DNA of 16,781 nucleotides from Candidatus Thorarchaeota archaeon (GTDB lineage: Archaea; Asgardarchaeota; Thorarchaeia; Thorarchaeales; Thorarchaeaceae), in the NCBI GenBank assembly GCA_003345595.1, contig PRDI01000024.1, forward strand, positions 1 to 16,781. The letters are read 5' to 3'. The position numbers were made by a program, and so were the translations under genes. Positions 1 to 840 of the stretch are shown piece by piece. Under the pieces are notes generated by a model. That model saw only the letters and a list, made by a program, of their open reading frames with translations. It made no database searches and was not told the DNA's origin. The stretch's first letter is position 1, and every line of letters begins with the position of its first letter.

Positions 1-840
1 AAGGGCCCGTGACCCGATTCTGTCACCCGACCATCCTTTGTCCAAACCCACTATACAGATTCGCGATTCCCTCTTGCACTCACGAATGCACTGTTCGCAC
101 ACGAAGGAATTGAAAAGCACGGTTCCGGTTTTGAGGTCCAGCCTTGCGACACCCTCCCGGAAGGGAATGATACAGACCGACTGAGTTGCTTCGACGCCGA
201 GTGAGTAGCCTAGCTGTCTGATCTCTGCAATCTCCTCATCAGTATTCAGAGGCAATACGTGTTGCTCCGGTAACATTGCAAACTCAGGGCAAGCATTGTC
301 GTCAAGTAGAACGAGAAGAGGGGGATGCAGACCTTCCTCCTGTTGTTTCGGCAGTGTCCCGGCAAGTATCTCGAGACTCTGAACAACTGAATCCGCCCGA
401 TGGGTTTCAGGAGTGACACCCAAAGCAGCACTCATGGTTGATGCCGCATCTTCTGTACTCATCGAGGAGCCTACAAGTACTATCATCAGCGAGTCACGGT
501 ACTCAGCCGAAAGGTGCTGGAGGACACGGAGTAGTCCATCGAGCTCGTTCTCTCGCAAGACAATGACTGAGGATCGGGATCCTCTCATCAATCCCCTAGC
601 CATGCCAGGGTACCTTTCTGTTTCTGGTATTAGCCACAGCTGTAGGGCAATATCACCAGAACCACATGCTATTCGGGATACTCCTATGCCAATCCCTAAC
701 ACCAAGTATAGCTGATATGCCAGACTCGTATCAGATGCCCTGTTCAGATACCCGGCTTGAAGAGCCGGGCTACAACCCAAAACGATCACCTTGTAGATCA
801 GCCGGGTCCTTTTCTCAGAACCGACATCTGGACAAGCCAC
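1..840 (-). CDS. Rab/Ras-like small GTPase-fold protein with degenerate G-motifs and a C-terminal Cys-rich domain (3'-truncated by window edge, at least 280 aa)
   Basis: Hand translation: the minus frame is open from 870 to 1 (upstream stop at 871-873), with a probable GTG start at 840. Sequence: MACPDVGSEKRTRLIYKVIVLGCSPALQAGYLNRASDTSLAYQLYLVLGIGIGVSRIACGSGDIALQLWLIPETERYPGMARGLMRGSRSSVIVL...MIVLVGSSMS...FVCEQCIRECKRESRICIVGLDKGWS. It follows the Rab pattern FKVVLIG..LSR..TIG..IKAQIWDTAGQERY..YYRGA..IMLVGNK. The start codon is uncertain. Confidence 0.8.
   Translation of the reverse strand, partial: MACPDVGSEKRTRLIYKVIVLGCSPALQAGYLNRASDTSLAYQLYLVLGIGIGVSRIACGSGDIALQLWLIPETERYPGMARGLMRGSRSSVIVLRENELDGLLRVLQHLSAEYRDSLMIVLVGSSMSTEDAASTMSAALGVTPETHRADSVVQSLEILAGTLPKQQEEGLHPPLLVLLDDNACPEFAMLPEQHVLPLNTDEEIAEIRQLGYSLGVEATQSVCIIPFREGVARLDLKTGTVLFNSFVCEQCIRECKRESRICIVGLDKGWSGDRIGSRAL

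Follow-up and report, generated by a model that had tools for sequence, protein, structure and literature searches.

A conserved Asgard protein combines a Ras-fold domain lacking GTP-binding residues with a cysteine domain genomically coupled to a ubiquitin-like protein

The first 840 nucleotides of a 16,781-nucleotide contig from a Candidatus Thorarchaeota archaeon (GCA_003345595.1, PRDI01000024.1; this whole stretch is the window) carry, on the minus strand, most of a gene for a two-domain protein. Its N-terminal half is a Ras/Rab fold that lacks the GTP- and Mg-binding residues and is under purifying selection. The C-terminal half consists of an Asgard cysteine domain; the gene encoding it either lies beside that of one dedicated ubiquitin-like protein (Ubl) of the SAMP/ThiS type or is lost together with it. 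The protein is real and conserved, and no paper describing its family was found in the literature searched, which did not cover subscription papers. Single members may stand unnamed in existing tables, as 159 divergent Asgard GTPase sequences received no annotation in Vargova et al., and Tran et al. (PMC10933270) list GTPases fused to unknown domains. The evidence suggests an unrecognized protein-tagging or sulfur-handling module.

The gene and its orthologues

The first-pass annotation of this DNA had proposed a hidden Rab-like pseudo-GTPase, acting as a scaffold, in an open frame that begins at GTG 840 and runs off the left end of the window. The 280 codons are indeed free of stops and every residue it named lies at its given position. 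The gene is not hidden. It is truncated because the window opens contig C24, and other assemblies do list its product, as hypothetical. The last 382 nucleotides of contig C72 overlap the window start with 4 mismatches, 3 of them synonymous, and this leftward extension completes the gene to 367 codons. A 134-kb contig of matching gene order carries an annotated product of 99% identity, and the full-length orthologue P0002, 84% identical, shares the GTG start position. The features of the gene in the window are:

1..840, minus strand: pseudo-GTPase/cysteine-domain gene, first 280 of 367 codons; the rest is on C72 (L019:1240-1881)
331..810, minus strand: Ras/Rab-fold pseudo-GTPase domain (residues 11-170)
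754..777, minus strand: former P-loop (G1), residues 22-29, with Leu27 and Gln28 in place of Gly-Lys
700..702, minus strand: Val47, at the G2 Thr position by alignment
619..636, minus strand: invariant Trp69 and, next to it, the altered G3 box without its Asp and Gly; Pro72 is fixed in Thorarchaeia
457..468, minus strand: former G4 box, residues 125-128
1..258, minus strand: residues 195-280 of the cysteine domain, which spans about 195-310 and has a weak UEV/E2/RWD-like fold resemblance
76..99, minus strand: CxxC-x3-C cluster (C248, C251, C255; fourth partner C308 on C72), a probable Zn or Fe-S site
31..57, minus strand: Cys262-x7-Trp270 segment, with Cys262 the candidate Ubl-accepting cysteine

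Full-length, open, single-copy frames occur in about 45 Thorarchaeia genomes, and a ratio of nonsynonymous to synonymous substitution rates (dN/dS) of 0.11-0.21 indicates purifying selection. The Asgard origin proposed earlier is borne out by the named relatives, which are Thorarchaeota records; all named matches bearing the domain are Asgard except one, in searches not aimed directly outside Asgard. That exception, P0059 (L029:2990-3961), is labeled Candidatus Deferrimicrobium at NCBI and is probably mislabeled, since a search of genomes located the identical sequence in an Asgard one. No family copies were found in viral contigs.

Some smaller observations concern the gene itself. Two copies are broken: one is a truncated copy in a Thorarchaeia genome assembled as one contig, where the Ubl is retained (G236:C1:2156440-2157114), and one is split into two frames (L061:3388-4326, genome G048). 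An out-of-frame ATG overlaps the GTG start (window 842-838; L081:797-802 in an orthologue, where it forms a start-stop), and an ATG near the gene start is absent from many orthologues. One small-GTPase frame lies on two contigs of the window's genome (G000 C105:12920-13483 and C7:407-970), which together with the C24/C72 overlap suggests strain mixing in the assembly.

A small-GTPase fold without its nucleotide-binding motifs

The GTPase-like nature claimed for the frame holds for residues 11-170; beyond them lies a different domain that had been overlooked. The single window sequence has no Pfam match, and a single-sequence phmmer search against the PDB aligns it without gaps to Rab3A over residues 15-94 (E 8e-4). 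The proposed +4 offset to Rab11A recurs in chains that align residue 14 to residue 10, at a single-sequence E of only 0.05-0.11. A profile of 47 family sequences matches Rab3C at E 4e-12 and Rab11A at E 6e-9, an HHalign comparison with a canonical Asgard small GTPase reaches a probability of 97.6%, and the predicted structure is a confident model with the fold of a GTPase domain (G-domain). Profile and structure comparison both uphold a small-GTPase fold, with Rabs as the best matches. The ESM Atlas offered no usable match, a Helarchaeales copy matching generic Ras clusters only.

The motif replacements are as first read: G1 is GCSPALQA, the G2 Thr is Val47, G3 is LIPET and G4 is SSMS. Leu27 and Gln28 are conserved in 100% and 80% of Thorarchaeia, and helix 1 begins at residue 25 in the structure model. 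Orthologues had been expected to reveal whether some keep GxxxxGKS and DxxGQ, and the nucleotide-binding residues are lost throughout the family. The second Gly of the G1 motif GxxxxGK[ST] occurs in 0/114 family domains versus 28/28 controls, the motif in none of 19 additional G-first copies, and G15, K16, D57, G60 and the G4 Lys (Ras numbering) in 0/35 Thorarchaeia sequences. Some distant members keep single residues (Lys in 41/114, Thr in 40/114, Asp in 24/114). Strings of the form [NT]KxD in some members were rejected as G4 because they fall outside the G4 column. The 20 or so canonical small GTPases of the window's genome keep G1 and G4. Judged by its residues, the G-domain has very probably lost nucleotide binding. 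With a GTPase fold, lost G motifs and selection, it is a candidate class i pseudoGTPase; of the hallmarks of an active Ras-superfamily member it has the fold and lacks G1, the G2 Thr, G3 DxxG and G4 [NT]KxD.

The Rab affiliation stands as far as the fold and the ranking of matches. Rab identity is not demonstrable, because the invariant K17, G49, W69 and G87 likewise occur in 78-96% of canonical controls, Arf/Rag-like ones included, and Asgard sequences show no specific sister relationship to Rabs (10.1101/2024.02.28.582541). Against Rab3A, parts of RabF motifs F1, F2 and F4 are retained, with residues shared by non-Rab controls, and F3 and F5 are mostly lost. No terminal Cys is conserved for prenylation, 9/47 sequences having scattered Cys in the last five residues. 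A quick G-domain tree dominated by long branches, which settles neither origin nor monophyly of the family, places only the two least decayed copies near eukaryote-type Rabs, unstarred.

A cysteine domain tied to a ubiquitin-like protein

Six cysteines are conserved in Thorarchaeia. C248, C251 and C255 are each found in 47/47 sequences and C308 in 46/47, a cluster that probably binds Zn or Fe-S. Cys262 is present in 73/79 sequences and in 10/10 copies without the CxxC pair; Cys and Trp are in register with E2, at an HHalign P of 0.048 and a probability of 1%. Searches of Pfam, NCBIfam and PDB sequences with the domain gave no significant match, nor did Foldseek with the domain alone at E 0.001; the family alignments hold no HPN motif, and UQ_con (PF00179) matches neither any of 32 members nor anything in the window's genome. 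The tail, residues 328-366, resembles a SHOCT-like helix-turn-helix, an identity rejected for want of Pfam support (0/10 tails at E up to 5).

The Ubl is a ThiS-family protein of 64-78 residues with a Gly-Gly end. It matches Pfam ThiS above cut-off and SAMP2 and Ub-Mut7C more weakly, and is a distinct orthologous group (E 1e-15 versus 1e-3 or worse for the other SAMP/MoaD genes of its own genome). Its gene, here for a protein of 65-70 residues, adjoins the family gene on the same strand in 5/5 Freyarchaeia-type loci and, for each of two further families, in two genomes; the remaining neighbors differ among the three. The window's genome holds one clear orthologue:

C63:11859-12092: Ubl orthologue, on a separate contig

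Across 86 Thorarchaeia genomes, where the two genes are unlinked, both were found in 42 and both were missing in 28, with 16 discordant (15/3/3/7 within one genus). Since kinship and genome incompleteness inflate such counts, five genomes, 96-99% complete and from four genera, were examined more closely. In all five the PIN/cupin-TIGR00725-phosphoesterase locus is assembled, with a short gap only at the expected gene position. At the Ubl locus, whose flanks are presumably an asparagine-synthetase-like and an HMG-CoA-synthase-like gene (names read off the sequences), the Ubl is absent in four and a diverged copy ending in Gly-Ala in the fifth (G117). An E1-type ThiF gene was found in 84/86 Thorarchaeia genomes, and a canonical E2 in 1/76, as a weak match. 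By genus labels, family gene and Ubl were co-lost independently at least three times, and the loss was selective, because the neighbors of both loci and the E1 gene persist. The joint losses at separate loci, together with the decay to Gly-Ala, link the Ubl to the family protein, and the two probably act in one pathway that needs the Gly-Gly end.

Neighboring genes and relatives of other architecture

Two genes lie upstream of the family gene in the window:

943..1365, minus strand: 140-residue membrane protein with an acidic tail, probably not a partner
1379..3205, minus strand: 608-residue protein with a weak N-terminal PIN match, probably not a partner

A system of PIN protein, membrane protein and pseudo-Rab was considered and rejected: an antisense cupin gene separates the upstream pair from the family gene in most loci (about 23), and both persist in genomes that deleted the family gene. 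Downstream on C72, TIGR00725 and metallophosphoesterase genes (median spacing 15 nucleotides) may share its transcript; they too persist after the deletion and are not neighbors in other families. Because all four neighbors survive deletion of the family gene, their products are unlikely to be obligate partners. Elsewhere in the window, 13303-14178 encodes a 291-residue protein without a Pfam match, with Cys-Thr near its N-terminus, that we take to resemble an Ntn-hydrolase.

The cysteine domain also occurs in other settings. In L099:931-1818, L104, L105 and L119 (and, degenerate, L075 and L098) it precedes an Arf-like G-domain; these reversed copies keep GKS/GKT and NKxD, have an altered G3 and lack Cys262. 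They represent a second, independent fusion to a small GTPase, decayed in one family. Stand-alone copies without the Cys cluster (L076-L080, one Asgard family) directly follow a profilin-like gene (Pfam E 6e-5). The domain is fused to a TFIIB repeat in L097:1405-2205 (Pfam E 7e-11) and, by eye and with no Pfam match, to a roadblock/longin-looking tail in L095:1102-2016. Helarchaeales-type members (L089, L090, L092, L100, L101, L118, L120) repeat a short helix, R-x-x-M-L-x-E-L-x-R-L, after proline-rich stretches, WH2-like by eye with no Pfam match. In 7/9 Lokiarchaeia-type loci (L033-L037, L039, L040), the second gene downstream encodes an intact Arf-like GTPase extended at its C-terminus.

Proposed mechanism and alternatives

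In the mechanism we propose, a general ThiF/UbaA-type E1 would activate the Ubl and Cys262 would accept it in thioester linkage, much as in a divergent, HPN-less E2, with the metal knuckle standing in for the HPN loop; Atg3 and Atg10 are E2s without this motif. The dead GTPase domain would recruit the target as a docking module of fixed shape, and that it is such a nucleotide-free module is very likely. A thioester at Cys262 combined with this targeting role is a plausible arrangement that we put somewhat below an even chance. The whole, a second, minimal Asgard Ubl conjugation pathway with a SAMP-type modifier, a general E1 and a divergent E2-like domain fused to a dead Rab-like targeting GTPase, is put forward tentatively. 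Several observations count against it: the Ubl is much commoner than the cysteine domain in some families, the two genes are not adjacent in most families, 16/86 Thorarchaeia genomes are discordant, and the co-loss fits a different chemistry equally well. The Ubl could instead be a sulfur carrier (a thiocarboxylate, like ThiS, MoaD or Urm1) and the cysteine domain an Fe-S or Zn center or a persulfide acceptor, or the domain could bind or be modified by the Ubl without transfer. We regard this main rival as somewhat less likely: no sulfur-pathway gene is a shared neighbor across families, and CxxC-less copies keep Cys262, one of them (L114) still adjoining the Ubl. Pointing towards it are the ThiS match, the six conserved cysteines and the example of Urm1, whose conjugation can proceed without an E2 and in concert with persulfidation (PMC9574740).

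The scaffold role first assigned to the protein is incomplete, as it took in neither the cysteine domain nor its link to a Ubl, which suggests chemistry over passive scaffolding. It is improbable that the protein is a pure scaffold whose zinc domain is structural and that common ancestry and common loss alone explain the Ubl pattern. It would match the class i pseudoGTPases AAGAB and CENP-M (PMC12490416, PMC4080450) and accommodate the non-adjacent genes and discordant genomes, whereas selective loss, the Gly-Ala decay in G117 and Ubl adjacency in three families speak for a working partnership. It is very unlikely that an altered pocket still binds a nucleotide or other phosphorylated ligand in some switch role. 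New conserved residues at the old P-loop and G3 sites in Thorarchaeia (L27, Q28, G30, P72), the single residues kept by some distant members and the intact G1 and G4 of reversed-order relatives would suit such a role; no Thorarchaeia sequence keeps any of the five canonical residues, however, and in the model the phosphate site would be occupied by Leu at the Gly position and by helix 1, which starts early. Finally, a decaying pseudogene or chance resemblance, to which the weak single-sequence scores (no Pfam match; Rab11A E 0.1) and the broken copies in G236 and G048 might point, is refuted by the many full-length frames, their dN/dS and the confident model, and its probability is negligible.

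Significance and comparison with known systems

Pseudo-GTPases have been characterized mainly in eukaryotes, and an old, selected, multi-lineage archaeal family means either that inactive Ras-fold modules are older than eukaryotes or that they evolved in parallel. The Ubl tie gives an otherwise blank protein a functional lead. An E2-like cysteine domain would provide a SAMP-type modifier with an archaeal E2 in Thorarchaeia, where the search for canonical E2s gave one weak match, would bridge E2-less SAMP/Urm1 tagging and E1-E2-E3 ubiquitylation, and would unite small GTPases with Ubl conjugation, both signature systems of eukaryotes, in one Asgard protein.

Among known systems, Asgard Rab-like (RasL) GTPases such as Thor-Rab (PMC10933270; PMC4915359) and eukaryotic Rabs share its fold and strand order, the gap-free alignment, the RabF1-region Gly, RabF2 Gln-x-Trp and RabF4 Arg-Gly; like the RasL proteins it has no prenylation tail. 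It differs in its missing nucleotide-binding motifs, an extra seventh strand and a 190-residue extension bearing the cysteine domain. No specific relationship to AAGAB (PMC12490416) or CENP-M (PMC4080450) emerges, AAGAB ranking 35th, under active Rabs; unlike them, the family protein is archaeal, fused to a cysteine domain and tied to a Ubl, and its nucleotide-free state is deduced from sequence. The archaeal E1-E2-RING cascade (PMC5654768) differs in that the partner here is SAMP/ThiS-like, not a eukaryote-type ubiquitin, and no RING gene is a neighbor. With the E2/UBC superfamily (PF00179), UEV/RWD and Atg3/Atg10, the cysteine domain appears to share a helix, a four-stranded meander, Cys-x7-Trp and two helices, and its genomic tie to a Gly-Gly Ubl; it is smaller, has a Cys cluster in place of HPN, and its sequence and fold scores are not significant. 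The Ubl resembles the SAMP/ThiS/MoaD/Urm1 beta-grasp proteins served by UbaA-type E1s in its family, its Gly-Gly end and the common E1. We know of no E2 for SAMP conjugation. Unlike other SAMP/MoaD proteins, this Ubl tends to occur together with the cysteine-domain protein.
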